From: Candidatus Saccharimonadota bacterium
GTDB lineage: Bacteria > Patescibacteriota > Gracilibacteria > BD1-5 > UBA6164
NCBI GenBank assembly: GCA_965229705.1
Contig: OZ245922.1
Span: forward strand, 660,001-692,000
Length of the DNA stretch: 32,000 nucleotides
Direction of reading: 5' to 3'
Notes under the pieces: generated by a model
Told to the model about the DNA's origin: nothing
The model's database searches: none
Seen by the model: the letters and a program-made list of their open reading frames with translations, nothing else
Translations under genes and position numbers: made by a program
Part shown: positions 682 to 29,396 of the stretch, piece by piece
Position numbering within the stretch: position 1 is the stretch's first letter
How the letters are laid out: each line of letters opens with the position of its first letter

Positions 682-790
682 CTTAAGGAACCTCTGAAAA
701 ACGAAAATTTTCTAATCCACTCTGGCTCTAACGAGCCATCTCTCCTTTGCAAAAGGAGAGAAAAAAGGAGTTTTTCAGAACTTCCTTAAT
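682..790 (+). repeat. Copy A of a ~110-nt interspersed palindromic, hairpin-rich repeat
   Basis: CTTAAGGAACCTCTGAAAAAC...TGGCTCTAACGAGCCA-TCTCTCCTTTGCAAAAGGAGAGA...GTTTTTCAGAACTTCCTTAAT. Terminal inverted repeats of about 20 nt enclose two internal hairpins. Related copies at 12144, 25063 and 29287. Confidence 0.8.
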
Positions 791-843
791 GAAGCGAGTT
801 AAACTTTTAATCTCGCTTCATGAGAGGCGAAGAAAGGACTAAA

Positions 844-999
844 ATGGACCTAAATACAGATAATTTTTTCGCAATGCTTCTAATACTCTTGGTTATTAGT
901 TTATCAGATTACTTCCAAGAAAAAATTTGGGTGAAATATATGAAATATGTAATCTTAGGATTGATTCTTGGATTCTCTTTGCCAATTATCTGATTATAG
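844..999 (+). CDS. Small hypothetical membrane protein (51 aa)
   Basis: ATG preceded by AAAGGA. MDLNTDNFFAMLLILLVISLSDYFQEKIWVKYMKYVILGLILGFSLPIIGL, with one TGA read as Gly, TAG stop, terminator hairpin just downstream. No homology recognised. Confidence 0.4.
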
Positions 1000-1011
1000 C
1001 AGGTATACACT

Positions 1012-1040
1012 AAAAAAGGAGCGTTATAACGCTCCTTTTT
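1012..1040. terminator. Bidirectional rho-independent terminator between convergent genes
   Basis: AAAAAA-GGAGCG-TTATAA-CGCTCC-TTTTT. GC-rich 6-bp stem flanked by an A-run and a T-run. Confidence 0.6.
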
Positions 1041-1041
1041 A

Positions 1042-1266
1042 CTATTTTATTATATTCTTCCAGTTCATAATACTCAGCACATACCCTGCAGCAAGTCCCC
1101 AAAAAAACATATACACCCATACATCAAGTGATAAAAGCACTGGGAAAGCCTTTGCAATCCAAAGTGTTGAAAAAACAATCATCAACTTAAATATCATTAT
1201 GTCACGAATTGTCATTCTATGAAGCGTGTCCATAGATTCTTGGATATATCTTTGGTAAAAGTTCAT
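1042..1266 (-). CDS. Hypothetical small membrane protein (start uncertain)
   Basis: Part of ORF 1042..1365. An internal Met (MNFYQRYIQESMDTL...) avoids overlap with the upstream MAPEG gene. Hydrophobic C-terminal half, TAG stop next to the terminator. Confidence 0.35.
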   Translation of the reverse strand: MNFYQRYIQESMDTLHRMTIRDIMIFKLMIVFSTLWIAKAFPVLLSLDVWVYMFFWGLAAGYVLSIMNWKNIIK

Positions 1267-1316
1267 AAAAAAAGAAAAAATATATAAATCGTATCTTAGA
1301 AAAAAATTGCGAAAAA

Positions 1317-1703
1317 CTACAATAGTATTCCAGAAATTGCCAGTAATAACATACTCACCGTACACAAAAGAGAAATCAGAAATGGAATCATACGCTTTTT
1401 AGGATCTTGCTGATACATAACTGCATACAAAATACGCGAAATAATCCATATTCATCAAATAATAGCAGCAGCTATCTCATAACCTCAAAATGTCGCTACC
1501 CACAATAAGGGAAGAAATACCATCACGCTCTCTAGCGTATTTACCTGAATACGATGAGCAATGATAAACTCTGTATTTTTAGTCGTATAGGTCTCATATG
1601 ACTGAACCTTGTGTTTTGAACGCATAGTTCCAACCCTAAAGGCAAGAAGTACCTGTAAAAGAGAGATAACGCAAGTAATCAGACCTGCATATTCATAGTG
1701 CAT
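1317..1703 (-). CDS. MAPEG-family membrane protein
   Basis: MHYEYAGLITCVISLLQVLLAFRVGTMRSKHK...AHRIQVNTLESVMVFLPLLWVATFGGYEIAAAIIGGIWIISRILYAVMYQQDPKKRMIPF... The R-x-H-x-N-x-x-E and R-x-x-Y...Y...P..R pattern resembles MAPEG. Three TGA codons read through; TAG stop at 1317. Confidence 0.6.
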
Positions 1704-1797
1704 AATAAAAAGTTATAAAAATAACTCTTGTATTGTAGTTTCATTATCTATTTACGCAAACTCAATCAACTATTTATGAAAAACTTTTTCAATAGTA

Positions 1798-3747
1798 CTA
1801 ATCTTTTACATACTCCCCTGCAAACTTACTCGTGAGACTCACAAAATCTGAGATATTTTTGAGTTCTCCTCACTCTAAAAGTACTGCCTGCATATAGGCG
1901 TAGTTGATAAGATCTTTGAGTTTTTTGGATTTTATATCAGACTGAAACTCTTTCTTCATCGCTTTTACCAGCTTATTGTTTGGGTTGAGTTCTAGGATAC
2001 GCTTTGTTTTTGGAACATCTTGTCACATCGCTTTCATCATCTTTTCCATTTGTGGATTCATAGATCCGTCTGGAGTTTTGAGAGCTCCAAGTGAATCTCA
2101 AAGATTTGTATTGAGCTCTACTTTTTCGATCTCATCTGCTCAAAGCGTATTTTTTATAAGCTTAAGCATATCTTTATACTGCTTTTGTGCTGACTCTTCT
2201 TTTTTCTTTTCTTCCTCTGTTTTTTCCTTGAGACTCACATCACTCGCGGTAATGGACTTGAGTTTTGCCCCTTTGTACTCATCAAGTACTCCTATCATCC
2301 ATTCATCAATCACATCTGTCAATAAAAGCACATCTACCTTATTTTCTCGAAACTGTGAGATATATGGACTTGCAAGTACTTCTGAGTGCGATTTTCCTGT
2401 GATATAATAAATAGTTTTTTCAGGAGTGTCTTTTTTTTCTGTCTTGTTTTCTCCTTGAGAAGTTTTTGGACTAGAGGCTTCCAAATACTCGTCTAAGCTC
2501 TGTTTTTTCTCTCATAAAAGTGTCTGAAACTCCAGTACCTCTGCAATATCCTGCTTGATATTATGCTCATAGTACACCCCTTCTTTGAGAATATTTCCAT
2601 AATTTTCAAAAAACTTTGAGTATCTCTCTCTATTATTTTCTCGAACTTTTTTCAGCTCTGTGAGGATTTTTTTCTGGAGCGCTGATTTTATTTTTTCAAG
2701 CGTGGTATTTGATTGGAGCATTTCTCGAGAAATATTGAGTGGGAGATCTGATGTCTCCACCACACCAGAAACACATCTGAGCCATACAGGAAGAAGCTCC
2801 TTTGCATGTTCCAAGATAAGCACATTTTGTACATAGAGTTTTGGACCATAATCTCTATTTGGATCTCGCATATCAGCAAACATATTTACTGATTCTGGGA
2901 GAAAAAGTAAAGCGTTATAACTCACTGCTCATTCTACATTTGTATGCACTCTTGCCAGTGGCTCTTGAAAATCCATACTCACACTCTGGTAAAACTCTTT
3001 ATACTGCTCATCACTGATCGATGATTTTGATTTTTTCCAGATTGCTTTTGTTTCATTGACCCTTTCGTATTTGAGCTCTTTTGGTTCTTTTTTCTGTTCT
3101 TCTTCTGATCGCGTATCATTTTCGAGCATCATAATCGGAACAGCAACATAGTTTGAGTATTTTTTTATGAGTTCTCTGACTTTCCAATCTGTCACAAGTT
3201 CCTGATTTCCTTCACTAAAATACAGCTTTACCGTTGTTCATCTTGACTGTTTCTGAGTCTCTATAAGCTCATATCCTGTTTTCCCATCACTGGTCCATAA
3301 ATGCGCTTTGGTATCCAAAGCACTTCGAGTCGTTACCTCTACCTTTTGCGCGACCATAAAAGCAGAATAAAATCCCACTCAAAACTGCCCAATAAGATTA
3401 TGGTCTCCTCACTGTTTTGCTTTTTCGAGCTTTTCTATAAATTCTTTTGTTCCTGACTTTGCAATCGTCCCAAGATGAGTATGGATTTCATCTTGTGTCA
3501 TTCAGATACCATTATCACTGATAGAGAGTGTTTTTTTATCACTATCAATATCTATTGTAATCTCAAAGTTGGTATCATCTCCGAGAAAGCTGGTATCTGT
3601 CAGAGACTTGAGTCGCGCTTTATCGATAGCATCAGAAGCGTTTGAGATGAGTTCTCTCAAAAATATTTCTTTATTAGAATAAATAGAATGTGTGAGCAGC
3701 TCAAGAATTCTTCCCGTTTCTGCTGCAAAATTATGTTTTTTTGTCAT
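1798..3747 (-). CDS. htpG: Molecular chaperone HtpG (Hsp90), 649 aa
   Basis: N-terminus MTKKHNFAAETGRILELLTHSIYSNKEIFLRELISNASDAIDKARL...SISDNGIGMT (the G of GMT is TGA at 3502-3504). C-terminus ...AYMQAVLLEGGELKNISDFVSLTSKFAGEYVKD. The four listed minus ORF fragments are all in one frame, joined only by TGA codons. Confidence 0.95.
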
Positions 3748-3757
3748 AAAAAATATA

Positions 3758-3784
3758 TTAGCACTTAAAATATATAAGTGCTAA
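3758..3784. promoter_or_regulatory. CIRCE (HrcA operator) inverted repeat upstream of htpG
   Basis: TTAGCACTT-aaaatatat-AAGTGCTAA is a perfect 9-nt inverted repeat with a 9-nt spacer. It matches CIRCE consensus TTAGCACTC-N9-GAGTGCTAA at 8 of 9 positions per arm. It ends 11 nt upstream of the htpG ATG. Confidence 0.7.
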
Positions 3785-3962
3785 TCATTGTATGATTTTT
3801 TCTCCGTGTATCAATAACTTTTCAGAGAAAATAAGAAAAAAATATTTGTATATTATTATTTTTTATTCATAAAGTATTTTTTATAAATTATTTTTTATAT
3901 AAATCAATTCTATTTTACGGTGTTGCATTCACAAATGTCGTTTTTTTGTATAAGATACCCAT

Positions 3963-4379
3963 ATGCAATATAAAATCCCGGTACAAATAGAAAATGAGGA
4001 TCCTATATTTTTAGGATTGAGCCTGAGGCAACTTACTATTATTATGGTAGGTTTTTGAATTGCTTATGGTATTTTTCAGAGTCTTATGCCGAGTGTTTGA
4101 TGAGAAATAGCTCTCATTCCAAGTGGTTTTATCGCGATACTTACCGTGCTTATTGCGGTGTTTAAAATCCATGAAATGACTTTTGTCCCTTTTATCCTCT
4201 CCCTGATACGACTCAATATTTTTCCCAAAGAACGCAAATGGGAGATGAATACTGATAGTTCTTGGTCGCTGGATATCGGATTTTTAACCAGTGAAACCGA
4301 AAAAAAACAACAAAGCATAGATATAGAAAGAAAAATAGATACAATCGAAGAACTCCAAGAAAAACTCAAAAAGATTTAG
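3963..4379 (+). CDS. PrgI-family (VirB3-like) small membrane protein of type IV secretion-like systems
   Basis: MQYKIPVQIENEDPIFLGLSLRQLTIIMVGFGIAYGIFQSL...FILSLIRLNIFPKERKWEMN... The N-terminal motif and two TM segments are as in PrgI-family proteins. Three TGA codons read as Gly; TAG stop. Confidence 0.6.
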
Positions 4380-4412
4380 TCATCTTCTTACTTCTTCTCT
4401 ACAAAGAAACTT

Positions 4413-5120
4413 ATGCCAGAGAAAAAAAAACCTAGTAAATCTCCCGACAGTAGTACCCAAAGACATCTTCCCTTTTCTCAACTGCGAGAAAATATCATGA
4501 TCATGAAAGACTCTTCAGCAAGAGTTGTGATGAAATGTAGTACCATTAACTTTTTACTCAAAAGTAACGAAGAACAAGATGCTATTATTGTAAGTTTTCA
4601 GCGCTTTCTTAACTCTCTGGATTTCCCTGTGCAGATAATAGTAAGATCCAGTAAACTAGATATAGATGGATATCTAGAAAAACTCAAAGAAAAAGCTGTC
4701 AGCCAAAAAAATGAACTCTTACAAAACCAGACATATGAATATATTGATTACCTCAAGAAACTTGTTGAGGTAGCACAAATTATGAAGAAAGAGTTTTATA
4801 TCGTTGTACCTCACGACCTCGAAGAAGATGCGAGCGTGAAATCTCAAGGAATATTTGGCATGTTTAAAAACTTTTGGCGAGCTATTAACAACGGAGATGA
4901 TATTGTAAAAATTCGTAGTCAAATACGCAGTTTTCAAGAAACGAAAAAGGCTCTTATGAACCGCAGTAGTACCGTAAAAACCAGTCTCGAATCTATTGGT
5001 ATTCGTGCAAGCGAACTCAATAAATCAGAACTCGTTGCTCTCCTTTCTGACTACTATAACCCAAGCCTTTGAAACTTTCAGGCTATGAAATCTCCGATTT
5101 CTGATTATAATCTTCTCTAA
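4413..5120 (+). CDS. Protein resembling only the N-terminal domain of VirB4/PrgJ-type T4SS ATPases (235 aa, no ATPase domain)
   Basis: ...RENIMIMKDSSARVVMKCSTINFLLKSNEEQDAIIVSFQRFLNSLDFPVQIIVRSSKLDIDGYLEKL... resembles the N-terminal region of Gram-positive VirB4-like proteins. No Walker motifs. One TGA read through; TAA at 5118. Confidence 0.45.
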
Positions 5121-5142
5121 AGTATTATTTTTTTGAATATAT

Positions 5143-5487
5143 ATGAAATATCTTTACTTCTTTTGATGTTTTTTTCTTCTTGCCCTACATCAAGTACAAG
5201 CAGAAAGCAGTAATATTCTCGGAATCTCTGATGATAAACTACGCTCTTGAGATGTACACTTGAGCGATATCCCTCTTGCTCTTCGTGCGGCGATTGATTT
5301 TTTTATGGCTATTGCCGGAACTATTTCTGTAATATTTATCATCATATGAGCATATAGAATTCTTTTCGGATCTGCCCAGCAAGATAAGACTAAAGGACGA
5401 GATACTATTTTTGCTGCGCTTACATGACTCGCTCTTGCTGCGCTTGCATGGACTATTGTGAAAGTGATACTTGCTAACCTCAGCTAA
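5143..5487 (+). CDS. T4SS pilin-like protein (TrbC/VirB2-like, CPR type)
   Basis: Signal-like N-terminus MKYLYFFGCFFLLALHQVQA, then ...DIPLALRAAIDFFMAIAGTISVIFIIIGAYRILFGSAQQDKTKGRDTIFAALTGLALAALAWTIVKVILANLS. Two hydrophobic helices separated by a charged loop, as in VirB2-type pilins. Confidence 0.6.
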
Positions 5488-5489
5488 AC

Positions 5490-5954
5490 ATGGATAGCCC
5501 TATTCTTCATCAGTGGCAGTACCAAGACAATAAAGATCGTTCACCACTTTGGTATATGATCGCTCTTTCTGTTTCTATTTGACTGATTGTTTGGGGATTT
5601 TTGACACTTCAATATGGAATGAGTATTGTCGTGATGATTGTCACTGGGTTGTTTTATTTTCTCGAAATACACTCTGACGAAATAATAGAAGTAAAAATAT
5701 CCGAAGCTGGTATATGGATACAAAAATCTTTTTATGAGTATTCTCACATTGCTTCTTATAGTTTCATATACTCAGGGAAAGATGTGATATATATGCGACT
5801 CAAACTTCGTCGAAGCCCCATTAGGCTATTATCTCTGCGTATAGACAACTCACAGCTCCTCGCTATTGAGAATATTCTACTTGAGGCTCTTGGAGAACCT
5901 GAGCGTCAAGATATATGAATAGTCGACCGTATCAGTCATTTTCTTAAACTCTAG
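5490..5954 (+). CDS. Hypothetical membrane protein (two N-terminal TM segments)
   Basis: MDSPILHQWQYQDNKDRSPLWYMIALSVSIGLIVWGFLTLQYGMSIVVMIVTGLFYFLEIH... ATG starts 3 nt after the pilin stop. Two TGA codons read through; TAG stop. Confidence 0.5.
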
Positions 5955-5959
5955 CACTT

Positions 5960-6382
5960 ATGAAACTCTTTTTTTCTATCATACTGAACGCCTCTATTTT
6001 GTACGCTATTACCTATCTTCTCTGACCAAATAGCGACAAAGCACTTGAAGCGTGAGTTGCCCTGTGATGTCAAAACTGTGAATACTTCTCTATTCAGGCG
6101 CTCAAGACCTATATTTTAGGAGGAGTCATACTATGAATCATTAACTCCACTCTCAGGCCTATACTGAGAATACTCTCTTTGCCCCTCTACTTTATATTTC
6201 TTTGATTGGTAAGTTTTTTTATCAATGCTATCATTCTCTATGTTTTTGGATATATCATCAATGATATACTCATGATTCCTGGTGTTTGATACGAAATTAT
6301 ATGAAATACAAACTTTATAATTGCAGTTGCAATTTTCACCGTCTTGAATACAGTCTATTCACTTTTGCATTTTAAAAAATAA
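5960..6382 (+). CDS. Phage holin family IV / DUF360-type membrane protein
   Basis: ...LGGVILGIINSTLRPILRILSLPLYFIFLGLVSFFINAIILYVFGYII... matches the hallmark LG..N..vRP.L..L.LP....TLGLF..v.Na core of this family. Several TGA=Gly codons; TAA stop. Confidence 0.7.
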
Positions 6383-6384
6383 GC

Positions 6385-6603
6385 ATGTTTGAAATACTTT
6401 CAACGATAGAAGTCGTTATTGCTATGCTCCTAATATTCGTAGTCCTTATTCAAAATAAAAGTGTTGCCCTCAACCTCTCTACGATGTCTGGCTGAATGTG
6501 AGCAACAGAAAAAAGATGACCCGAAAAAGCACTCCATAAACTTACTATTTTTCTTGGAATGCTTTTTATACTTAACTCTCTTGCCCTCTTTATACTCGCG
6601 TAA
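6385..6603 (+). CDS. secG: Preprotein translocase subunit SecG
   Basis: MFEILSTIEVVIAMLLIFVVLIQNKSVALNLSTMSGGMGATEKRGPEKALHKLTIFLGMLFILNSLALFILA. Size (72 aa), the VLIQ motif and the Gly-rich loop (three TGA=Gly) fit SecG. Confidence 0.75.
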
Positions 6604-6619
6604 TTATTAGAATAAGCTT

Positions 6620-8791
6620 ATGAGAGATTTGGTTCAAAAAAAGCTCAAGGCATACTTATTATATATAAGTATGTTTTCTTTTTTTGTGCTGAGTGGTCAT
6701 CTCTGCTTTGTATATCTCTACCATGATGCTGACACAAGTGCTCTTGAATGAGGAACAATATCTGAGGCACTTATAGGAGATTTTCCACACTTTAATCCCC
6801 TGATTCCCTCTCGAAATCATAACGCTTATATCAATAAACTTCTCTATCGCTCGATACTAGAATACTCTCCCGAAAAACAAAGCCTCGAGCCAAGTATCAT
6901 GAACTGTGATACGAGTAATCTTCTGCTGATCAAATGTTCTATGGAGAGTAGTATTTTTTGGTCTGATGGAAGTGAGATAAGCCCCTATGATGTCCAGGCA
7001 ACCCTGAGCCTCATAAAGCAGACTCGTTCACATCCTATCATTGCCTCTCTTTTGGATAATACTACTATGGAAGTCAGCTCAGAATCTCTCACATTTCGAA
7101 ACACAGCGCGAGATATCAACTTTCTTCATGTACTCCTGCAACCTATTATTCCTCAGGATGTAGCTGAAAATCTCAATAGAGCAAATATTACAGGAAAATT
7201 CTCTGAAGTATGAACCATATATTCAGGAAGATTTCGTCTTGTAAATATTCATCAAGATGAGACTATTGGTGTTACAAAACTGACACTGTGAAGAAATGAA
7301 TATTATTCGCCATCTGATATATTCATCGATTTTTATATCTTGCACCTATTTACCAACGACAATCATTTTGCAAAACATACAAGCTCCTTCAATGTATTCA
7401 ATGACAAGCAAAGACTGATCGCAAACCCTATTCCTCGCCTGAGAAAGTTTGAATACTCTCTGCCACAGTTTACCTGAGTATTTTTTAATACTACAAATCT
7501 CTCTGCTGATGAGAGAGTCACTCTTGCATGACTGATTGATCGAGATGATGTTGTAAAAACTCTCGGAGAATCTGTTGTGCAAGAAGCCTACAACCCTTTT
7601 CTCAGTGATACTTCTATAGATGCCCTATGAAAAGTGGATGTTGAAGTTTTGAAAAAATGAAAACCCTTCTATCGCAAAAAAGAACTCCAAGAAATAGCTC
7701 TTGCGGTAAAGAATCTCAAAAAAGTCACCATATCAGAAGAAGCAAACGCAACTCCAAAAATCACTCAAGAACCACTAAAATTCATACAAAATAGTGATAT
7801 CTTAAAATACAATTTTCTTACTCGTGATAACATCCTCATTTCATGAGATGTTCCTGCAGGAACACAAAAAGTATTTATCAACGACTACGAGCTCACAAAA
7901 TATTCTCCTGGAGACAGCGTATTTTACTATCGGCTTTTAGAGGCGTATGATTCTATTGTGGAGGGTGAAAATGTTTATAGGCTCTATTATGAGTGAGTAA
8001 ATGGGAAAGAGTTTCAAGAAGAGTTTTATGTGTACTACTACAAAGACCAAGAAGACAAAGTTCGTGAAATGCAAGAAACATTTTTCTCCCCTGAAGAAAC
8101 AAACCAAGATACCACCATAGAACAGATTCAAGAACTTGAAGAAAACCTCCTCACCCTTGATATGGCAAATACTCTCCTTGATGGCTATCTCTATGAAAAA
8201 GATGGAAGTATCTTATGATACAAACTTGTCTACAGCAGGGATGATCCCCTTATGGAAAAGACAGCATTGTACCTGCAAGATATTTTTTCATCTCAGAGTA
8301 TCTCTCTTGAGTTAGAAGCTCTGAGTATAGATCAAATTACGAGCCGTATTCGCAGCAATGATCTCTCCTATGATATACTTCTCTTAGGAATAAATACGGG
8401 ATATTTTAGCTCAAATATATTTCCCTATTTTCACTCAAGCCAAATTGAAAATGGATATAATCTGTCAAACTTTAAACTCCTCAGTCTTGATATCCTATTA
8501 GAAGAATTAAAAAGTCATAATATCTGAATACAAAAGAAAAACGAACTCGAAGAAAAAATGCTTGATATTTTTCAGGAAAATCAGATTATGAAAATACTCT
8601 ATACTCCAAAGTATACGCTACTTGTGGATCAAAATATACAAAATTTTTCTTTTCCTGGTATGATTGTTGATGATGCTCTGAGATATCATTTCTTTCTTTG
8701 AACACACCTTTCTGAAAAAAAGACGATTATCTGGAGAGAAAAGTCTCTCTGATGATTTTTCTCGTATCTTATATCACAGTTATCTTTCTAA
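6620..8791 (+). CDS. Extracellular solute-binding protein, family 5-like (peptide/nickel SBP fold), 723 aa, N-terminal membrane anchor
   Basis: One frame joins ORFs 6899, 8030 and 8252 through TGA codons. Family-5-like segments: ...GRFRLVNIHQDETIGVTKLTLGRNEYY..., ...GVFFNTTNLSADERVTLAGLIDRDDVVKTL..., ...DILLLGINTGYFSSNIFPYFHSSQIENGYNLSNFKLLSLDILLEEL.... TAA at 8789. Confidence 0.6.
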
Positions 8792-8794
8792 GAG

Positions 8795-9712
8795 ATGGAC
8801 GCTCAAGAAAAGACATACATGAATAACTCTTTGCTCTATCCCAGTTTAGAACTCATTAAACATGATACAAAGATTAAGGGATTTTACTTTATCCCTGGAG
8901 TTTTTTCTGTTGCTTTTTTGTCGCTTATCCTCGTATACCAAACACTGTATACTTATATCGTATTACTGGGAAACTCTGAAAGTTTTTCAGAGAAGATACT
9001 GGGATTTTTTGACTCTGATTATGGAACTCCTACTCTGATAACTTTATGATGCATTGCCCTATTTTACATCACTTTGATGCCCTTGTTTGAGTGAGCACTC
9101 ATTCGTTATATAGAAGCTAAAAATGAAGATACTCAGGCAAGTCGTTCTGACGCTCTGGGTTTTGGTATTGTTCGCTTTGCTCCACTGTTTGAATACAACA
9201 ATATATTTAATATGTTCAAGTTTATTTCTATCGTTAATGGGTATCTCTTTGCACTCCGTTTTCTTGGTTTGGATTATGTTTTTGCTCTTTCTATTGTTTT
9301 TGGTGTAGCATTTATTTTTTCAGTGATTCTCAATATACTCACTTCCTATGCTCGGTATGAAATAGTACTGGAAAAAAAATGAGTATTTGAAGCGATTGGT
9401 GTTTCTTCACAAATTGCGCTTCTCAATATGAAAACAACTATTCGTCTCTACTTTATGATGTTTATCATGAACTTTAAGGTACTCATTAACTTTATGATAT
9501 TTTTGATATTTCCCCTGCTTACTGTCTCTATTTTATGATTCATTAGCTCACAAATATTTAGTCTTATTACCTTTATAATTTTGGCTGGAGTATTTGTCCT
9601 ACTCTTATGTCTTATGGGGTATATGGCAGGAGTTCTTGAGATATTCACAACGGCTATTTGGTATCATGCCTATAAGCAAGGAAAAGAGAAGCTTTTACAC
9701 AATAAGATGTAA
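8795..9712 (+). CDS. Hypothetical polytopic membrane protein (305 aa)
   Basis: A single frame is open from ATG 8795 to TAA 9710 once five TGA codons are read as Gly. Multiple hydrophobic segments. The listed ORF 9123..9308 is out of frame with it. Confidence 0.55.
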
Positions 9713-9884
9713 AAAGCTTATTCCCAAAAAAATGGGAAAATAAGAAATATGTAAAAATACCCAAGGGGCATAAACTTTGTAGCTCAAGGAAAAACCAACT
9801 TGGCTGAAATAAACGTACTTACTGTACGAGTTTGAAGACAATGTTGAGTTTTGACGATGAAATACGAAGTTTTTCCGCATTTCC

Positions 9885-10685
9885 TTAGGCAGTATAATTT
9901 TGAAAGTGCTTATAATAATAGTTTTTCATATATTCGAGATTTTGTTCCACTCTCTCAGCATTTCATACTCCTATTGCCTTGGGACTCACTCTGAGAGTAA
10001 TATATCCTCCATAACCTAGCGTCTTGAGTTTCATCAAAAAACTCTCTAAAGGCAGATGAGAAATACCTCCTCATGCTCCTCCAGGCAGAATTCATCTTTG
10101 CATTCCATGTTTGTCTGAAAAAAGAACATTTTTTATCGATTTTCCGAGAACTCCATGAGCTTTGACGATATCCATACTGGAAGAGTTATCTATTGCCATG
10201 ATATCGAGTGTTGTGTCTCCTGTGAGCGTCTTGATTTGGCTCAATGTCGCATTTCGATACTCCGGAATCACAAAAAACAAAAATTTCGCTTCTACATTTT
10301 TTACCGCAATAGAGATATGTGTATCTCTTTTTATTTTTACCAGTGATGTTCAAAACCATTTTGTATCTTTGTCAGTAAAATGTGGAGGCGAAAATGTTAC
10401 TACTTGAACAGATAGTTTTTTTGCGATGATCATTATTTTCTCAAGTTTTTTACTACTCATATCTTTTGATGGAGCTGTCAGAGAAAGAACCGGAAGATCA
10501 AATTCTTCTGCAAGTTCTGCAATATAATCTTCATCCCAAAGATCATAGTTCAGCATTCAAAGAGCAATATCAAGACCTGTATAGCCTGCATTTTTTGCAA
10601 ACTGAAAAATACGATGAAGTCCATATCCTGTAAGGCTTGAAGTAGAAAGAAGTAGCATTGTTTTTCGTAAAAATAATAATTTCAT
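9885..10685 (-). CDS. Sugar phosphate isomerase/epimerase-like (xylose isomerase-like TIM barrel) protein
   Basis: MKLLFLRKTMLLLSTSSLTGYGLHRIFQFAKNAGYTGLDIALGMLNYDLWDEDYIAELAEEFDLPVLSLTAP...VQVVTFSPPHF... Three listed minus ORFs are joined by TGA. Start chosen at the Met preceded by GAAAGGA (alternative start 10658). TAA at 9885. Confidence 0.6.
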
Positions 10686-10845
10686 TATTCCTTTCTGTCT
10701 CGCTATGCTCGACATATTTCCCTTTCGACGAAGGAGAGAAATAATATATAACATTATATTACTATAAACCGGCTCTATTTTCAAAAATATGAGCCTATTT
10801 CTTTCTTGCCAAAAGTATGTTTGAGTATATAGAGAAACTTTCACA

Positions 10846-12143: not shown

Positions 12144-12252
12144 CCTTAGGAACATCTGAGAAACAAAAATTTTCCAATCCACTTTATCTCTATCGAGACA
12201 TCTCTCTTTTGGAAAAGGAGAGAAAAAAATACCTTCTCAAATCCTCCTTAGA
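12144..12252 (+). repeat. Copy B of the ~110-nt palindromic repeat (more diverged)
   Basis: CTTAGGAACATCTGAGAAACAAAAATTTTCCAATCCACTTTATCTCTATCGAGACATCTCTCTTTTGGAAAAGGAGAGAAAAAAATACCTTCTCAAATCCTCCTTAG is collinear with copy A. Lies between the smpB stop and the serS start. Confidence 0.75.
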
Positions 12253-12266
12253 GGACTCTCAACTTT

Positions 12267-20010: not shown

Positions 20011-20076
20011 TAAAGCAAAGAGAAGCCTAGAATGGAGAATTGTTTTGAAGATTCTCTATGCTAGGTTTTATTTTTT

Positions 20077-20282
20077 CGGGGACTGGCGCAATACGGCTAT
20101 GCCGCACGCTTTGGGAGCGTGGGGTTCGGGAGTTCTCCTCTCGCTACGCGAGACTCTCACAAAAATAAAATTACATCTTCGGGGACTGGCGCAATACGGC
20201 TATGCCGCACGCTTTGGGAGCGTGGGGTTCGGGAGTTCTCCTCTCGCTACGCGAGACTCTCACAAAAATAAAATTACATCTT
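20077..20282 (+). repeat. Two perfect 103-bp tandem repeats, each starting with a copy of the 5' half of tRNA-Pro
   Basis: 20077-20179 and 20180-20282 are identical: CGGGGACTGGCGCAATACGGCTATGCCGCACGCTTTGGGAGCGTGGGGTTCGGGAGTTCTCCTCTCGCTACGCGAGACTCTCACAAAAATAAAATTACATCTT. The acceptor 5' strand and anticodon arm match the real tRNA-Pro that follows. The GTCCCCG 3' acceptor strand is absent. Confidence 0.9.
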
Positions 20283-20359
20283 CGGGGACTGGCGCAATTG
20301 GCTAGCGCACACGCTTTGGGAGCGTGGGGTTGTGAGTTCGAGTCTCGCGTCCCCGACCA
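20283..20359 (+). tRNA. tRNA-Pro (anticodon UGG)
   Basis: CGGGGAC-TG-GCGC-AATTGGCTA-GCGC-A-CACGC-TTTGGGA-GCGTG-GGGTT-GTGAG-TTCGAGT-CTCGC-GTCCCCG-A-CCA. G37 and the C1-G72 pair are typical of tRNA-Pro. Confidence 0.9.
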
Positions 20360-22373: not shown

Positions 22374-22376
22374 AAT

Positions 22377-23390
22377 ATGAACATCCAAAAATGAATCAGC
22401 CACTGTGATACCATAGGAGATATTTTTAAAAACCCTCTCCTAGTAAAGCTTATTAACAGGTGGCATAAACAGCTGTATAGTAACCAAGGGATACAGCGTA
22501 AAAAAAATAAGCGTATTCGCCCAGAGTATTATGAGTTTCTCCGAAGCATATTTCTAGATAGATCAGATATGCATCTTTTTTTGGACTATATCCGCGAACT
22601 GATCATCACAGAGGATAGTTTATACCAAAGTATTGAAAAGAGTTATAATATAGAAGACCGCATTGTGACACTGCTTGCTTTCGATGAGATACATACACAA
22701 CTCTCAAACTACAATAGGTTCACTCTGCAATGAATATTTCAGACTCGTATATATGACATTATTAACGACGCTAAAAATCGTAGTGCTCATGAAGAAGACC
22801 CAGAAGAATGAGTCTATCCAGAAATATCTGTATATGACGCTTTAGAAGGTATGCTCGAGAGATGAATTCCTATCAGTCAAGATGGAGAAATCATAGGTTA
22901 TATAGCTGATACAAATGACCACTACCTTGTGAGTGTTCAATGAGTTTGATCCTTGCGAGAGGCTGATAGAGTGTGAAACTATGTTGATGAAGATGATATA
23001 CTACAAATATCATGACTTGCTATACCAGCTACAAGAGGTGATATGGTTAAGAGAATTCGTATGATAGAAAATATATTGCAGCATATATGAAGTTGAGATG
23101 ATGAAGAATCTGTTTTATGAGACGATGAAGAAGCACTTTATAATGCTCTTGAGAGTGATTTTGATAGCCAGAGAGATACGCACCTTGATGAGACCATGAT
23201 TCAACAACACTTTTATGAATATGTTGATCAATATAAAACAGAGCTATGAGAAAGACTCAAGAAGATGCCCTGGGATACGCAAAAAGAGTTTCAATGACTC
23301 AAGCTCGTATGAACTTCTGGAGATCCTCATGAATCTTGAAAAAATGCAAACACTCCTACCCGAAAAAAAAATCTTCATATCGTGAAATAA
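22377..23390 (+). CDS. Hypothetical acidic protein (337 aa as written; last ~30 codons doubtful)
   Basis: ATG starts 4 nt after the nuclease stop. MNIQKGISHCDTIGDIFKNPLLVKLINRWHKQLY...DDEESVLGDDEEALYNALESDFDSQRD...KKMPWDTQKEFQ. After about 23295 this frame has three TGA codons in 16 codons and looks non-coding. TAA at 23388. Confidence 0.5.
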
Positions 23391-25047
23391 TATCCTTAAT
23401 CAAAAAAACATGCACTCCTCAAATATAACTCGATCCCAAGTGACTGCTAGTATTCCCCATGAAATTGATTCGTATACGGGGAAAGTCAGAATAGACCCCT
23501 CAGCTATTACTCACATAGTCTCTCAAACACGCTGAGAAACTCTTCATCTCTCTGACGTGAGTCCAGAAAAGCAGGGTCTTCTCCAACATTTTCAAAAAAA
23601 TATTATATGACAAGAGCAGGCATGTGAAGAAGTTGCTGATCGTATCGATATATGACTACATCGTATGCTACAACCAGGCTGACCTCTTGCGATTATTCCT
23701 TTATTTTGACCTACAGGAGTATGAAAAACGCAATTTGCTCGTTGTACTGCGGAGTTCTTTTTTGGTGATTCTTGAGACTTCACAAAAATAGCTGGAGAAG
23801 AACATCAGCAATCACATACAGATAGAAATATATTTTGAGCTCCAAAATCGTATATAGGATATGGAGATTCAACCCCTCTTTCATCGAAAAATTTATTTCG
23901 ATATTATGACAAAAAGAAAAACACTCCTCTTTTACAAAATAGACCGAACTTTTCTATTCTTTTGCTTGATGAAATAGAAAAGTTTCATCCAAGTATTATT
24001 CAATCTTTTCTCTGAATACTTGATACATGAAAAGTCGAACTGACCAATAATGATTCTGTAGATCTGACGAATACCATTATTTTTATTACTTCAAACGCTG
24101 GAGAAGCAGAGGCATCTAATAGAAAACCCATATGATTCTACGCTCATGAAGATCATGATGATGAGGATATTCGTGACAGAGCAATATCTCAAACATTTTC
24201 TCCAGAATTTCGATCTCGAATGGGTTCTCCTATACGACTCAAAAATCTTTCACCAAATGACTGTATTGGTATTATTCATAAAAAAATTCAAGATACTAAC
24301 AAGGTTTTACAAGACTATTATATCTCGTGGAATGTTCATATATGAATTTCTGATTCTGCTGTGGATTTTTTAGTAAAACATTGATTTAACAAAAAACAAT
24401 GAGCAAGACCAATAGAGCATGTGTATAAAAAGTTTGTTAGTAGGAAAATTGATCGAGTGCTAGGTGAGTTGAAGGACTCTCCCGTACTGTACAGAAGAAA
24501 CCCAACCATACTTTTCTTTGATTATCATGAACAAAGTGATGATATGACTGTACAATTATTTTCTCCTGAAATACAAAAAGGGTCCCATTTTATACAGGCT
24601 ACACCCTATCAATATACTCCTACGACTATTGATTTAGTAAACAGAATTCTTTCTCAGTCAGAGAAAGTAACATCATATATCACTGAGCTAACAAAAGACG
24701 GATTTGATAAAAATGCCATTGTATTGTTTTCTACCCTAGATCATCAGAAGATTCTCGAAACTATCAGTATTTTTGAGTTATGGGGTAAATGATCTATCAA
24801 TGTGTATGGAGAACATCCTGATGCTTTTGAAAATTTTCAGCTGAGAGATATAGGGAGGATAATTCTCAATATAGCGCGGCAAATTTTTCAAAATGATAAC
24901 TACTCCAAGCATATATTTATATTGCGAGTCATTGCTCGGGGTATTCTTGTCATCCAAGAACTCATCTGAAGAGAAACACTAAATGAAATACAAAAAAATA
25001 TTATAGTACAAATGTCGGTATCTTCTGCCTTAAAAATATGGAAGTAG
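23329..25047 (+). CDS. Single-domain Clp/Hsp100-like AAA+ ATPase (ClpA/B D2-type) with ~220-aa C-terminal extension; start uncertain
   Basis: ...IDPSAITHIVSQTRGETLH...NIIGQEQACEEVADRI...LFGPTGVGKTQFA (Walker A; both glycines are TGA at 23707-9 and 23722-4)...IFGAPKSYIGYGD...ILLLDEIEKFHPSIIQSFLGILDTGKV...IIFITSNAG...FSPEFRSRMG... Candidate starts at 23329, 23344 and 23410. Frame is +1 relative to the upstream gene. TAG at 25045. Confidence 0.75.
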
Positions 25048-25062
25048 TTTATGAATTGAGTT

Positions 25063-25246
25063 TTAAGGAAACTCTGAAAAATAGAAAAATCTTGTGTAAG
25101 AGACCGGTCTCAAGCCCTTGAAATAAGTAACTCGAGACCGGTTTCGCGAAAACAAAAAATTTCTCATCCTCTCTGGCTCTATCGAGCTTTCTCTCCTTTG
25201 TAAAAGGAGAGAAGAATCTATTTTCCCAAGAAACATAGCCTTCATT
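25063..25246 (+). repeat. Copy C of the palindromic repeat, carrying a 71-nt nested insertion and a degraded 3' arm
   Basis: TTAAGGAAACTCTGAAAAA / [insert 25082-25152] / CAAAAAATTTCTCATCCTCTCTGGCTCTATCGAGCTTTCTCTCCTTTGTAAAAGGAGAGAAGAATC... is collinear with copies A and D outside the insert. Confidence 0.75.
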
Positions 25247-25330
25247 GTTTTGAAATACGACATGAAAGCGAAACGAAAAAGTTGACTTGTGTTTTGTTTT
25301 TATATAATAGCGTGGCTATGAAAGTTGTAG

Positions 25331-25407
25331 GGGCGTATAGCTCAGTTGGTTAGAGCGCACGACTGATAATCGTGAGGTCGGAAGTTCAAATCTTCCTATG
25401 CCCACCA
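25331..25407 (+). tRNA. tRNA-Ile (anticodon GAU)
   Basis: GGGCGTA-TA-GCTC-AGTTGGTTA-GAGC-G-CACGA-CTGATAA-TCGTG-AGGTC-GGAAG-TTCAAAT-CTTCC-TATGCCC-A-CCA. Confidence 0.92.
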
Positions 25408-25424
25408 TAAAAGGCGCTTATATA

Positions 25425-25451
25425 CCTTTGAGGAAACTCAGAGGTTTTTTT
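25425..25451. terminator. Rho-independent terminator after tRNA-Ile (also faces the hisS end)
   Basis: CCTTTGAG-GAAA-CTCAGAGG followed by TTTTTTT. 8-bp stem with one G-U pair and a GNRA loop. Confidence 0.65.
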
Positions 25452-25480
25452 AGTGCGCTTACTTTCAAGTTTGCTGAGTA

Positions 25481-26767
25481 TTATACCAAACAGATTTTCT
25501 CATCTCCTGACTGAAGATGTTTTATTTTGTAACATGATTTCTGACATTCTTCCTCTCCAAAAATAACTACATGAGAAAAATGATGCTTATCTGCATACTT
25601 CATAGCTTTTGCGAGTTTTTTCTTTGAAAGTCAAAGTTCTATATTTTTTCACTGCTGGCGTAAACATGATGCAAGACTTTGCACATCGGAAAATAATACT
25701 CCTTCCAAAAGAGGAAAGTAATACTTTTCTTCTTGAGTATCTACAAGTTTTTTCAAAAGATTATGCCCCTCTAAAAAGAGCTTCATTGTCTCATCTCCAG
25801 GAGCAAATCCTACTGCTGGAATATCCTCTTTTACTCAAAAAATACTTGCTAAACCATTATATCTCCCTCCTCAAAAAAGAGCTCGTGGATTATCTGAGTT
25901 TTGATCAAACATTTCAAAGATAATTCCATCATAGTAGTCAAAACCTCGAATCAGATCTCCCGAAAATTGTATCTCAGAGGCATATCAAAGATCTACTAAA
26001 AAAGTACTTATTTCTGAAAAATCTTGAAAACTCTGCGTTGTAACAATATCAGGAAAAGACTCTGCCAGATCAGAAATACTTTGAGAGCTCATAAATTTCT
26101 CAATAGAAGAAGATATATCGCCTAATCAAAGTTCTCAGAGTCACTGAGTAAAAGCTTCTCACGTCATTTTTTCATATTTATCCAGCAGTCTCATCAATTT
26201 TTTTGAGAGTGTTTCATCTGAGATTTTGAGAATATTTTGAAAAAAACTTTCTATGAGTCATCGATGATTGAGTTTGAGCATATAACTGCCACTTGGGGCA
26301 TCAAAGGCTCTCATGAGTTCCAGAGCGAGTGTCAGTATTTCTCTATCGGCATTCACTCATGATTCTCCAAATATATCTGCGTTGAGTTGCCAAAACTCTC
26401 TATTTCTTCATTTCTGTGGTTTTTCGTTTCGATAAAAATTCGCAATACTAAACCATTTCAGAGGCTTATCACATTCTTTCCACTTACGGCTAACCATACG
26501 AGTAACTGTTGGGGTCATTTCTGGTCGAATTGCGAGTCCATCAAGATGTCATTCACGGTTTGTAATCTGTGTGAGCTCTGATCAACCTACATCTTCTCAT
26601 GATTTTGCTTTCCATATATCGATGGGCTCTACGAGTGGTCCAAGATATTCTTGAAAACCATAGCGTAGGCATACCTGTCTCCAGGTATCAAAGATATATT
26701 TTCTGAGTTTGTATTCTTCGGGAAACCAGTCTGAGGTTCATTTTGGTGGAGTATTTGGGAGTTGCAT
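25481..26767 (-). CDS. hisS: Histidyl-tRNA synthetase
   Basis: MQLPNTPPKGTSDWFPEEYKLRKYIFDTWRQVCLRYGFQEYLGPLVEP...AIRPEMTPTVTRM...FYRNEKPQKGRNREFWQLN...LIRGFDYYDGIIFE...ALFGGGRYNGLASIFG...IPAVGFAPG... The G of PKGTSDW is TGA at 26738-40. TAA stop at 25481. Confidence 0.93.
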
Positions 26768-26845
26768 AAATTGAAAATAGAAATACTAAAATAGTATAAA
26801 GATAAAGCAGAACTTCTCAAAAGACATTGCGAAAAAACAGTGAGA

Positions 26846-27610
26846 TTACATTTTTGAAAATTCACTACTCTTGAGTTTTATCCTAATACCAAAGGCATTA
26901 TTTCCATATACTTCTTCTGGAAAATGCATTTTTCGACGATAGCTATGAAAGAGCTCTTTCTCTTTATAAGTACAATACGGAGAAACTTCTATATGTTTAT
27001 GCAAAACTCCATACTTCAAAAGTTGGTGCTCTGCAGTTGCTCGAAGATGAAAAAAATAATTTTTATTTCTCTGTTCTAAAAAAGAAGTGTACTCCTCAGG
27101 AATCCGAGAAATAAAATCTTCTCCCACCTCGTAATTTTGTACTCAAATACAGGGACCAACAAATACATATAGGTCTTGAGGTTCAGAAGAAAAGCTCTCA
27201 TGCATTTTCTGAAATGTCTTTGAGATAATACCAGAAAAAAGTCATCTCCATCCTGCATGAATGGCTCATACACATGTATTTTTCGCATCGTATATAAGAA
27301 GTGGGATACAATCTGAGGCTAAGACGCTCATAAAGACTCAAGGAATATTTGTAATAGCTGCATCGCCGTAGTGCTCTTGACTATAATTTTCTGAAGTAAT
27401 AAGATGAGTAGTATTTCCATGTTTTTGACTCAGAAACACAAGACTATCTTGTGATATTCATAGTTTCTGAGCCAAATATATTTTATTTTTTTCAGCAGCA
27501 TATGTATCCTCTGATTTATGAATTGAAGAATGGAAAAAATGAGGTTTCGTAGTTATGAAACTCTCCACCTCTGGAAACTTAGAAAAGATGTGAGGATATA
27601 ATATTTTCAC
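26846..27610 (-). CDS. pgeF: Peptidoglycan editing factor PgeF (YfiH / DUF152 laccase-domain protein)
   Basis: ...SDCIPLLIYDAKNTCVGAIHAGWRGLFSGII...VFVGPCIGVQNYEVGEDF...SPYCTYKEKELFHSYRRK... The last G of HAGWRG is TGA. The GTG start shares one base with the comM TAG. TAA stop. Confidence 0.85.
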
Positions 27611-29145
27611 TATGATTCTTCCTTTTTACGATAACTCAATGCCTCTAAAATATGTTCTGAGGAAAGTATATCACTTCCGTCAAGATCTGCAATAGTTCGA
27701 GAAAGCTTGAGGATACGATAATAGCTCCGAGCAGAAAGATCAAGATTCTCTACTGCTTGCTGCAAAAGATCTTGAGCCTCTTCTTCAAGAATGCAGTATT
27801 CTTTTACCTGCTGAGAACTCATCTCAGCATTTGCTGAAATATTGAGCTGTAAAAAACGGTTTTGCTGAATATCCCGAGCCTTTTGAACTCGAAGCTGTAC
27901 TTCCTGTGAACTCTCTGGAGTATTGTCTCTTCACTTTTTAAAATCTTCAAGAGGAACTTTGGGAACATCAATATACATATCCACGCGATCAATCAAAGGT
28001 CCTGAAAGACGAGCGCGATAATTTGCTATCTGATTTAGACTACAAATACACTGCTTATCTGTATCTGTGAGATACCCACACGGACAAGGATTCATCGCTC
28101 AAAGAAGAGAAAACTTTGCCGGATAATTATATGTTGCATTTACCCTCGTTACAGTAATTTCGCCATCTTCCAGTGGCTGACGGAGAACCTCAAGTACCGT
28201 TTTTTGAAACTCCAAAATTTCATCAAGAAACAAGACTCCCTTATGAGCAAGTGATATCTCTCACGGTTTTGCATGACTCCCTCCACCAATAATACTCACA
28301 CTACTTGCAGTATGATGGATACATCGAAACGGTCTTTCGACGACTAAAGGTATATCATTTGATAGTAATCATGATATAGAATATATCTTTGAGATTTCTA
28401 TAGACTCTTCCAATGTAAGATCCGGGAGAATACCCGAAAACGATTTTGCTAGCATCGTTTTTCCACTCCCTGGAGGTCCTTCCATAAGAATATTATGGGC
28501 TCATGCTGCTGCTATCTCCAGAGCTCTTTTTGCCTGAGATTGTCAGACAATATGACAAAAATCATATTTTTGTGAAACATGCTCCTGTCTGAGGGATGAG
28601 AGGTCCAAGACTGGTTCTGGTGTATAGGCAAGTTCCTGATTGAGAATAGCGATAAGTTCTTTGAGGTTTTGTATTTTGATCACCTCAATTCCTGGAATGA
28701 TAGACGCTTCTTTGGTATTAGCTGCAGGAATAAAAATACGAGAAAATCATTTTTCTTTTGCTCCTATTGTTGCTGGAAGTACTGAAGGGATATGCCGTAA
28801 ACTCCCATCAAGCGACAATTCTCCTAAAAATATTGAGTCCTGTACCAGACTCTCATCTCGAATATATCACTGATCCAGCAATATCCCTACCGCAATTCAC
28901 AAATCAAAACTTGGTCAGGTCTTTTTGATATTTGCTGGAGCAAGATTTACGGTGATCCGCGTTGTTGGAAGTTTTGCACCACTCGACTTAAGAGCTGAAC
29001 GCAGACGCTCTTTACTCTCTTGTACTCACTGGTCAGGAAGTCATACGATGGTAAAAGCAGGAAGCCCTTGGTTTATATCTACTTCGATATCAACAAGGGT
29101 TGTATCGAGTCCATTGACACTAATAGCGCGAGTTATAGAAATCAT
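27610..29145 (-). CDS. comM: Mg-chelatase-like AAA+ protein ComM/YifB
   Basis: [38 protein letters not shown]...[29 protein letters not shown]...[11 protein letters not shown]...[12 protein letters not shown]...[19 protein letters not shown]... The G of AAAGAH is TGA at 28501-3. TAG stop. Confidence 0.93.
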
Positions 29146-29286
29146 CTCATAGAATATTATATGCTAAAATACATGTATATATCTCAAATATATTTTGAGT
29201 ATATATTGTATATATTTTTATGCAAAAAAAATATGAACTTTTTTGAAGACTTTTATAAATCTCGTGTTTTATTGTATGAAAATATT

Positions 29287-29396
29287 CTTAAGGAATCTCT
29301 GAGAAACTCCTTTTTTCTCTCCTTTTTCAAAGGAGAGATGGCTTGTTAGAACCAGAGAGGATGAGAAACTTTTTGTTTTTCAGAGTCTCCTTAAGG
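29287..29396 (-). repeat. Copy D of the palindromic repeat (inverted relative to A-C)
   Basis: Reverse complement: CTTAAGGAGACTCTGAAAAACAAAAAGTTTCTCATCCTCTCTGGTTCTAACAAGCCATCTCTCCTTTGAAAAAGGAGAGAAAAAAGGAGTTTCTCAGAGATTCCTTAAG. Lies between the comM start and the Rrf2 stop. Confidence 0.8.

Follow-up and report, generated by a model that had tools for sequence, protein, structure and literature searches.

[quoted passage not shown] Prokaryotic MITEs such as the Correia elements (CREE/NEMIS) of Neisseria, ERIC, RUP, and MITEAba12 are non-coding repeats of 100–200 bp delimited by terminal inverted repeats of ~20–26 bp; they lie in intergenic DNA near gene ends, form a long hairpin when transcribed, and can be nested in one another (PMC10969869). 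Another type of palindromic repeat is represented by REP sequences and their BIME and REPIN arrangements, short imperfect palindromes that are extragenic, reach a high copy number, often form inverted pairs, and are accompanied by a conserved tag; GTAG- and CGTC-tagged classes with RAYT (Y1) transposases have been defined (PMC3733652, PMC3116915). We have analyzed a repeat family that resembles MITEs as a whole and REP sequences in its inner hairpin, in a window of 32 kb (the whole stretch of DNA under analysis) from a marine member of the Gracilibacteria with a genome of ~1 Mb. Candidate Phyla Radiation bacteria, to which this host belongs, have small, streamlined genomes, for which descriptions of mobile repeats are, to our knowledge, few. 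The features of the family in the window are the following:

682–790, + strand: copy A, the best preserved of the four (covariance model, fold), flanked by the DEAD-box helicase gene (− strand), whose 5' end faces it, and by a small ORF on the + strand (845–999)
683–702, + strand: left terminal repeat of copy A
714–718, + strand: ATCC tag of copy A
723–738, + strand: small hairpin (P2) of copy A
739–761, + strand: main hairpin (P3) of copy A
770–789, + strand: right terminal repeat of copy A
10690–10745, + strand: low-confidence candidate for a fifth copy, decayed and limited to the core, in the short space that follows serS
12144–12252, + strand: copy B, whose terminal repeats have decayed, located antisense to transcription between the stop of smpB (12267, − strand) and the start of serS (12111, − strand)
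25063–25246, + strand: copy C, 184 nt including a nested insertion, with a degraded right terminal repeat, 15 nt past the stop of the ClpB-like AAA ATPase gene (+ strand), with the tRNA-Ile promoter downstream
25092–25147, + strand: nested insertion of 56 nt in copy C, read from the sequence, with its own 12-bp hairpin (GAGACCGGTCTC...GAGACCGGTTTC) and an imperfect direct repeat of ~17 nt on either side (GAAAAATAGAAAAATCT / GAAAACAAAAAATTTCT)
29287–29396, − strand: copy D, in sense orientation, starting 3 nt past the rrf2 stop (− strand), with comM ~140 nt downstream

The first-pass annotation had reported four collinear copies, and all of them were found again at the same coordinates. A covariance model built from the four copies (R1) and run over the 32-kb window retrieved each of them with 78–135 bits, together with one further weak match only (10664–10765; 19.4 bits, E 0.024). 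Without the insertion the element is 109–110 nt long, and the copies have no ORF in common. Copies A and D are 89% identical over 108 nt and copies A and B 78–86%, while copy C, in which the two ends and the core correspond to those of the others, differs by the 56-nt insertion and a degraded right end; collinearity extends over the full length, spacer and terminal repeats included, in 4/4 copies. The placement of the copies had been described as strictly intergenic, which holds for all four if TGA is taken as sense and fails under translation table 11. The longest ORF in the window is of 256 aa with table 11 and of 727 aa with TGA as sense, and in the host genome this codon most likely encodes glycine; its use as a sense codon had been missed in that annotation. 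The identity of the neighboring genes was established by Pfam for DEAD, SerS, SmpB, ClpB-like AAA_2, and Rrf2, and for ComM by means of homologues and their precomputed Pfam domains. The ComM of the window, translated with code 4, comes from a contig of 1,006,762 bp. Orientation relative to these genes varies: copy A lies between divergent genes, copy B is antisense between co-directional genes, and copies C and D are in sense orientation past stop codons.

Between terminal inverted repeats of ~20 bp with the sequence (TTA)AGGAAnCTCTGAAAAAC, the element contains a spacer, an ATCC tag with a run of pyrimidines, a variable small hairpin, and a main hairpin, TCTCTCC-TTTGNAAAA-GGAGAGA, which is nearly invariant among the copies. 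The outer stem, the small hairpin, and the main hairpin that had been proposed were all predicted by folding; the AAAAAAGGAG tail attributed to every copy is present in A and D and missing in B and C. In copies A and D the terminal repeats are ~20 bp long with 19–20 of ~21 positions paired, and in B and C they are degraded. Predicted fold energies were −42.2 kcal/mol for copy A (z −7.3), −37.5 for D (z −3.8), −51.3 for C (z −4.3), and −23.2 for B (z −1.8, not significant), the weak fold of the latter being due to the decay of its terminal repeats. Identity between copies reaches 93% in the main hairpin, 84% in the left terminal repeat, and 63% in the right one, and such unequal decay across the element is as expected of dead copies. 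The half-compensated pair noted earlier in the outer stem is real (columns 29/105 are AU, GC, and unpaired in two copies), and covariation is as weak as had been judged: three pairs have both sides changed, and 103 of 500 shuffles reach the same number, so that none of it exceeds the shuffle controls.

We interpret the family as a lineage-specific, non-autonomous, MITE-like palindromic element that would have spread as a whole unit of ~109 nt and is now decaying, with a probability of roughly 0.6. A mobile repeat, MITE-like or REP-like, was the best favored of the three options raised at first, the others being a terminator or mRNA-stability element and a small RNA gene family; transposition itself is what we infer from the copies. 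The MITE-like reading is favored because the whole 109-nt unit was copied and is dispersed, intergenic, in both orientations, unequally decayed, absent in the nearest relatives, and flanked by TTAG at copy B. Neither solo terminal repeats nor solo cores occur in the window. In the nearest relatives (ComM 78–80% identical), no copy was found in ~63 kb of non-redundant DNA (L020–L026), against four copies in 32 kb here; these relatives are too distant and their gene neighbors differ, so that no orthologous empty site could be aligned. When GTDB genomes, JGI metagenomes, and IMG/VR were scanned for exact matches to the central hairpin, no full element was revealed outside the window, and blastn against plasmids and phages gave no match. 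Matches to the terminal-repeat pattern in IMG/VR viral contigs lay within coding sequence and were attributed to chance.

The flanks of copies A and D are TTAA/TTAA, which is palindromic and therefore uninformative for target-site duplication, and those of copy C are TTAA/TTCA. At copy B, the single informative copy, the flanks are direct and not inverted (TTAG...TTAG), which would fit a target-site duplication provided that a 1-nt deletion occurred in the left repeat. No transposase domain was found in the window by Pfam, nor was a longer element or a parent insertion sequence whose terminal repeats are the same, and both results count against the MITE-like reading. Under that reading, the copies would have been moved in trans by a transposase whose gene lies elsewhere in the genome and which would recognize the terminal repeats, insert at TA-containing sites (TTAA/TTAG), and duplicate 2–4 bp; the present copies would be old and decaying. 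The RNA of those located inside transcription units (B, C, and D) is predicted to fold into a long hairpin (−23 to −51 kcal/mol). Judging from Correia and ERIC, such a hairpin could change the processing or the stability of the neighboring mRNAs, as a side effect and not as the reason for the existence of the family.

These features agree with those published for prokaryotic MITEs, including the nesting of elements in one another (PMC10969869), and the size, the lack of coding capacity, the length of the terminal repeats, the intergenic location near gene ends, and the predicted hairpin are likewise those of the Correia/ERIC type, TA-type insertion being suggested only. Mobility, duplication of the target, and processing by RNase III, which characterize that type, are only putative for the element reported here, and no sequence similarity between the two was detectable by blastn against plasmids and phages. 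The host also differs, being a ~1-Mb Candidate Phyla Radiation genome with TGA as sense, and the element encloses a tagged REP-like hairpin with a wide distribution of its own. As a point against the MITE-like reading, the central hairpin is conserved far above the terminal repeats and is present in organisms without them, which hints that the core, rather than the terminal repeats, is perhaps what matters.

Without the terminal repeats, the tag and hairpin core recur in other Gracilibacteria (L006, 40 bits; L014, 38 bits; model positions 31–90 only), Thermodesulfobacteriota, and Omnitrophota, in Mu-like phage contigs, and on cyanobacterial and Acinetobacter plasmids. Poly-C versions occur on the Mu-like phage contigs and on plasmids, the latter including plasmids of Nostoc, Synechocystis, Planktothrix, and Allocoleopsis. 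The existence of an ATCC-tagged hairpin module common to such distant organisms had not been noticed in the first-pass annotation. Several of the related units are located at contig ends. The tag is AATCC or CATCC, and outside the window the core behaves like a REP-like tagged hairpin: as in REP, BIME, and REPIN, it is an imperfect palindrome, of 25–45 nt, next to which a conserved tag remains unpaired on one side, it occurs alone, in inverted pairs, or in arrays, in most cases past the 3' end of genes, and variation in its stems preserves complementarity. Such inverted pairs and arrays were found in other genomes and none in the window, where the palindrome and the extragenic placement are as in REP. 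Differences from REP are the tag, (A)ATCC and not GTAG or CGTC, the pyrimidine/purine asymmetry of the stem with its fixed TTTGNAAAA top, the absence of a RAYT gene from the window, and the inclusion of the module, always, in a larger repeat there. The small dispersed repeats (SDR) of cyanobacteria, which Elhai et al. reportedly described in 2008 as very small hairpin repeats inserting into intergenic DNA and into other repeats, resemble the module by description, and the poly-C module is present on cyanobacterial plasmids.

Based on this distribution, a wider proposal can be made, which we consider tentative and rather doubtful: that the inner module belongs to an undescribed third "tagged" super-family of REP-like hairpins, cross-phylum and horizontally spread, handled by a conserved enzyme binding single-stranded DNA or RNA, with the window element as a local derivative that gained terminal inverted repeats. 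Such a module would be made up of the (A)ATCC tag, a run of pyrimidines, a small hairpin as an optional part, and a pyrimidine/purine stem with TTTGNAAAA at its top. No published description of it was found in the accessible literature, and sequence searches gave unrelated primers only. If the tagged hairpins of the different phyla were one family, the REP-like catalogue would extend past the GTAG and CGTC classes, and the family would offer a starting point in the search for the enzyme responsible for the movement of such hairpins. It is unlikely, for the window itself, that the mobile or functional unit is this inner hairpin, a very small REP/SDR-like repeat on whose single-stranded DNA a tyrosine transposase (HUH/Y1, RAYT-like) would act, with the outer inverted repeats as a local add-on or as remnants of paired units. 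Apart from the cores without terminal repeats and the poly-C versions, such an origin is consistent with a 46-nt unit of sharp boundaries present in five different flanks, with REP/BIME-like arrays of alternating orientation in a Thermodesulfobacteriota MAG, with the position of the tag 5' of the hairpin at 17 of 19 exact-hairpin loci (9% in the background), and with covariation of the stems among variants (both sides changed in 5 of 9 pairs), although these variants were partly found by a filter requiring complementarity. Against it, the core is never alone in the window, where the copied thing is the whole 109-nt element, no Y1 transposase is encoded there, and the tags that define REP sequences, GTAG or CGTC (PMC3733652), are absent. 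Two further ideas on the core were discarded: a triple helix with the pyrimidine run upstream as a mirror of the 5' arm, since the variants fit mirror or direct repeats and the CCCCT variant favors direct ones, and a resemblance to the tRNA T-loop (TTCGAATCC), since the bases preceding AATCC are not conserved.

Selection for a cis-acting RNA element, such as an mRNA 3'-end stabilizer, an RNase III processing site, or a translational device based on alternate pairing of a CU-rich arm, anti-Shine-Dalgarno-like, with either of two purine-rich runs, which are Shine-Dalgarno-like, appears improbable. It would account for the strong folds of A and D (z −7.3 and −3.8), for the start of B, C, and D at 3–15 nt from a stop codon, for the 93% conservation of the main hairpin, and for the purine run GGGGGATT directly upstream of a start codon on the reverse strand of several phage contigs, and Correia and ERIC elements do act in this way (PMC10969869). 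However, the element lies on either strand with respect to transcription (B antisense, C and D sense), covariation among copies does not go beyond that of shuffles, wobbles and mismatches do not favor one strand, the element is missing at these genes in the nearest relatives, and no start codon follows the element at a fixed distance in the window. The suggestion of a terminator was not sustained either, as there is no consistent orientation of a hairpin followed by a T-run: an A-run follows the main hairpin on the tag strand, and a T-run precedes it on the other. A terminator scan gave incidental internal matches only, and the genuine terminators nearby look different. A passive effect of the element on mRNA stability is conceivable.

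A binding site at the DNA level, for a nucleoid protein or as a DNA-uptake-type sequence in inverted pairs, is very improbable: the inverted-repeat arrangement is intergenic, the terminal repeat contains TCTGAA, which we take to resemble the neisserial uptake sequence, and ComM and type IV secretion-like genes are present in the genome, but the conserved part is the central hairpin and not the terminal repeat, and there are just 4–5 sites in 32 kb, each within a long collinear element. The small RNA gene family proposed earlier is scarcely credible, since, in spite of compact, strongly folding units in several copies and an AT-rich −10-like sequence directly upstream of copy A, the flanks of the four copies have nothing in common, neither promoter nor terminator, their orientation is mixed, two copies are visibly degraded, covariation is not significant, and Rfam 15 gave no family at the elements at the gathering score or at E ≤ 5. 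Only three tRNAs reached the gathering score in the window, and Rfam returned nothing relevant in L003, L006, L010, and L011. CRISPR, retron, DGR hairpin, integron attC, and relaxase nick-site were ruled out on anatomy or position alone.

If the density of the window held genome-wide, the host would contain, by extrapolation, roughly a hundred copies. A repeat of this kind would break assemblies, and it could affect the expression of neighboring housekeeping genes, for instance serS, comM, and tRNA-Ile. At ~1 copy per 8 kb, the element would constitute a noticeable part of the intergenic DNA.

A repeat finder ranked as the top family of the window (108-nt arms; copies A and D 89% complementary, B and D 75%) the four copies located by the first-pass annotation, whose coordinates were confirmed and whose description of the repeat family was accurate: the family is real. 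A covariance model built from the four copies (R1) scored them at 135, 127, 117, and 78 bits in a search of the window and revealed nothing convincing beyond them; the next match (10664-10765; 19.4 bits, E 0.024) may be a decayed core (ATCC tag, small hairpin, and main hairpin, without terminal repeats). Pairwise identity between copies peaked in the main hairpin (93%) and was minimal in the right terminal repeat (63%). The copies and their parts are as follows:

682-790 (+), copy A: between the helicase gene and a small, divergently oriented ORF (845-999)
683-702, copy A: left terminal repeat, followed by an A/T-rich spacer
714-718, copy A: tag AATCC, then a short pyrimidine run
723-738, copy A: small hairpin
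739-761, copy A: main hairpin TCTCTCC-TTTGCAAAA-GGAGAGA, followed by an A-run
770-789, copy A: right terminal repeat
12144-12252 (+), copy B: bounded by the smpB stop codon and the serS start codon, antisense to transcription
25063-25246 (+), copy C: starting 15 nt past the ATPase gene stop, sense, ahead of the tRNA-Ile promoter
25092-25147, copy C: nested insertion of 56 nt with its own hairpin and an imperfect direct repeat of about 17 nt at its flanks
29287-29396 (-), copy D: starting 3 nt past the rrf2 stop, sense, ahead of comM

We consider it probable (roughly 60%) that the window element is MITE-like and non-autonomous, that it was amplified in full within this lineage, and that it is now decaying; this is the simplest account for the window. 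The window element matches the overall picture of prokaryotic MITEs in published descriptions (PMC10969869): small intergenic elements with terminal repeats at their ends, which lie within one another and whose transcripts are processed by RNases. No transposase domain was detected by Pfam in any window protein. The nearest database relatives carry a ComM only 78-80% identical to that of the window, and in their comM contigs (L020-L026; about 63 kb non-redundant) the order comM, Cu-oxidase_4, hisS is kept and the genes upstream of comM differ from those of the window. The density seen in the window predicts about eight copies for these 63 kb; blastn, hairpin scan, and R1 detected none, which indicated that the family is lineage-specific and that these genes do not carry it as a conserved regulatory feature. 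The flanks of the four copies shared no sequence. Immediately next to copies A and D, TTAA occurs on either side, which is a palindrome and hence uninformative; copy C is flanked by TTAA and TTCA, and copy B by TTAG on either side, a direct repeat, since the right flank would read CTAA if the inverted repeat extended into it. These flanks would fit target duplication of 2-4 bp at TA-containing sites, copy B being the single informative copy. The duplicated target is TA for IS630/Tc1-type elements and YTAR for IS5-type elements, whose ends begin with GGAAG. Longer duplications were seen at the insertion in copy C and in another locus (L015), where a perfect 17-nt direct repeat, AAACTCTCTTAATCTCT, brackets a segment of about 70 nt bearing a core unit; in both cases the flanking duplications are unusually long.

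The main rival, to which we assign a distinctly smaller chance, places mobility or function in the inner tagged hairpin itself, which would then be a REP-like unit, perhaps mobilized in single-stranded DNA form by a tyrosine transposase; such a reading refines the MITE-like picture more than it contradicts it. GTDB genomes, JGI metagenomes, and viral contigs were scanned for the exact 23-nt main hairpin, which gave 14 loci in the first, 5 in the second, and none in the viral contigs. Window-type terminal repeats were present at none of the 19 loci, and AATC[CA], not a requirement of the search, lay at most 35 nt 5' of the hairpin in 17 of them (background 9% per 35-nt window). The hosts were other Gracilibacteria, a Thermodesulfobacteriota MAG (six contigs), a "Deltaproteobacteria" MAG, an Omnitrophota MAG, and an unclassified bacterium. 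The R1 match in two of the Gracilibacteria MAGs (L006 and L014) was limited to the tag, the small hairpin, and the main hairpin, and their small-hairpin stems, GTCACGC/GCGTGAC and TCC/GGA, are quite unlike the GGCTC/GAGCC of the window. In others, a 46-nt unit, AATCCACACTTGAATTCTCTCCTTTGGAAAAGGAGAGAGGCTRC, showed sharp boundaries in five unrelated flanks, and it frequently had as an inverted partner a second unit, AATCCTTCAC[hairpin]AGAGCTTCC-TTTGGAAAA-GGAAGC. Between housekeeping genes of the Thermodesulfobacteriota MAG, the TC-type unit (TCTCTCC 5' arm) alternates with poly-C units (CCCCCC 5' arm), AATCCCCCC-AG-CCCCCC-TTTGTAAAA-GGGGGG, an arrangement resembling REP/BIME arrays; the TC unit in this MAG reaches about 80 nt (AAAGYTTCTTTAATCC...CAGTTACCAC). 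Two pyrimidine runs compete for one adjoining purine run in the tagged hairpin. RNAalifold predicted the main hairpin from 19 cores, in which ATCC and the TTTGNAAAA top are essentially invariant, with both sides changed in 5 of 9 pairs, a covariation that is indicative only, since part of the set was gathered with a filter requiring complementarity.

A looser pattern, requiring pyrimidine and purine runs and not complementarity, matched 11 IMG/VR contigs (G+C 45-69%), all 11 of poly-C type, in which the outermost pair of the stem is either T-A or C-G. By blastn, the poly-C unit was also found, unannotated, on plasmids of Acinetobacter, Nostoc, Synechocystis, Planktothrix, and Allocoleopsis. 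The arrays and units located were:

L003 170-350, L010 3200-3400, and L008 3540-3630: alternating-orientation arrays of ATCC-tagged hairpins (TC and poly-C types), BIME-like, Thermodesulfobacteriota MAG, between housekeeping genes
L005 3730-3830: alternating-orientation array of ATCC-tagged hairpins (TC and poly-C types), BIME-like, "Deltaproteobacteria" MAG, between housekeeping genes
L037 2806-2838: poly-C unit, Mu-like phage, between MuA-like (transposase A-like) and MuB-like genes
L039 about 2770-2801 and about 3300: two poly-C units, Mu-like phage, among head-morphogenesis genes
L048 1400-1540, L049 901-933, and L050 1501-1540: poly-C unit ATCCCCCTAAATCCCCC-loop-GGGGGA, Acinetobacter, Allocoleopsis, and Synechocystis plasmids

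ORF callers translate the units of L039 straight through ("...NPPCPPLEKGG..."), and in the three plasmid loci the tag and pyrimidine run together repeat the hairpin 5' arm in direct orientation. The repeat family is best filed under a known kind of element, the palindromic intergenic repeats of MITE-like type, with a Candidate Phyla Radiation genome as host in this case, and the cross-phylum ATCC-tagged hairpin is the sole element that might be new. A survey of tagged REPs covers only GTAG and CGTC tags (PMC3733652). A literature search by sequence words, whose reach did not extend to the cyanobacterial small dispersed repeats (SDR), returned nothing relevant to the tagged hairpin. The paper on those cyanobacterial repeats is where an earlier description would most probably stand.

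A selected cis-acting RNA role of individual copies appears improbable. Against shuffled sequence, copies A, C, and D folded far more strongly (z -7.3, -4.3, and -3.8); decay of the terminal repeats explains why copy B did not (z -1.8). The annotation had cautioned that covariation support was weak, and rightly so: 88% of cells in the alignment of the four copies are paired (shuffled mean 87%), and the three pairs changed on both sides and the covariation score were equalled by 103 and 44 of 500 shuffles, respectively. Wobble pairs and mismatches showed no strand preference. Rfam reported only three tRNAs in the window at gathering score, and no match overlapping the copies at E≤5. Promoter and terminator scans of the four copies yielded no common feature, and the genuine terminators nearby (1013-1040 and 25424-25445) are unlike the repeat hairpins. 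Such a role would also leave the mixed orientation, the decay, and the absence in relatives unaccounted for. DNA binding sites (very unlikely) and independent small RNA genes (least likely of all) each found little support. A separate hairpin, GAAGCGAG-N13-CTCGCTTC (793-821), directly follows copy A ahead of ORF 845-999, outside the repeat family.

The longest ORF of the window (G+C 35.7%) is 256 aa under the standard bacterial code (table 11) and 727 aa when TGA is read as sense, with which ORFs tile the window. The best database match to the window ComM (P0001; 98% identical; gene on a 1,006,762-bp contig) differs at 12 positions, all W in P0001 and G in the window reading and all at in-frame TGA codons, which makes P0001 a code 4 translation of the same gene. 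Every ComM homologue bearing a name is from "Candidatus Gracilibacteria". In "IVGLPD", a ComM motif that we take to be conserved, the glycine position is occupied by an in-frame TGA, and we therefore read the window with code 25 (TGA = Gly), the likely code. Among the genes neighboring the repeats, Pfam identified a DEAD-box helicase fragment, SerS, SmpB, a ClpB-like AAA_2 ATPase, Rrf2, and NifU; for ComM, the identification came from its homologues and the Pfam domains precomputed for them. The stretch 3963-5487 encodes type IV secretion-like proteins (PrgI family, a weak TraC/VirB4-like match, and a T4SS pilin).

Two other structures were observed in the window. A 23S rRNA-intervening-sequence protein gene (PF05635; 30316-30666, - strand) is bracketed by a 50-nt inverted repeat (30241-30290/30721-30770; 86% complementary), and gene plus repeats (region 30241-30799), which look like an inserted cassette, separate the cysteine desulfurase and NifU genes of an isc/suf-type operon. 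The intact tRNA-Pro gene (20283-20359) is directly preceded by two tandem 103-nt copies (20068-20273; 97% identical), each of which includes the 5' two-thirds of tRNA-Pro with its anticodon arm, the D and T arms being broken.
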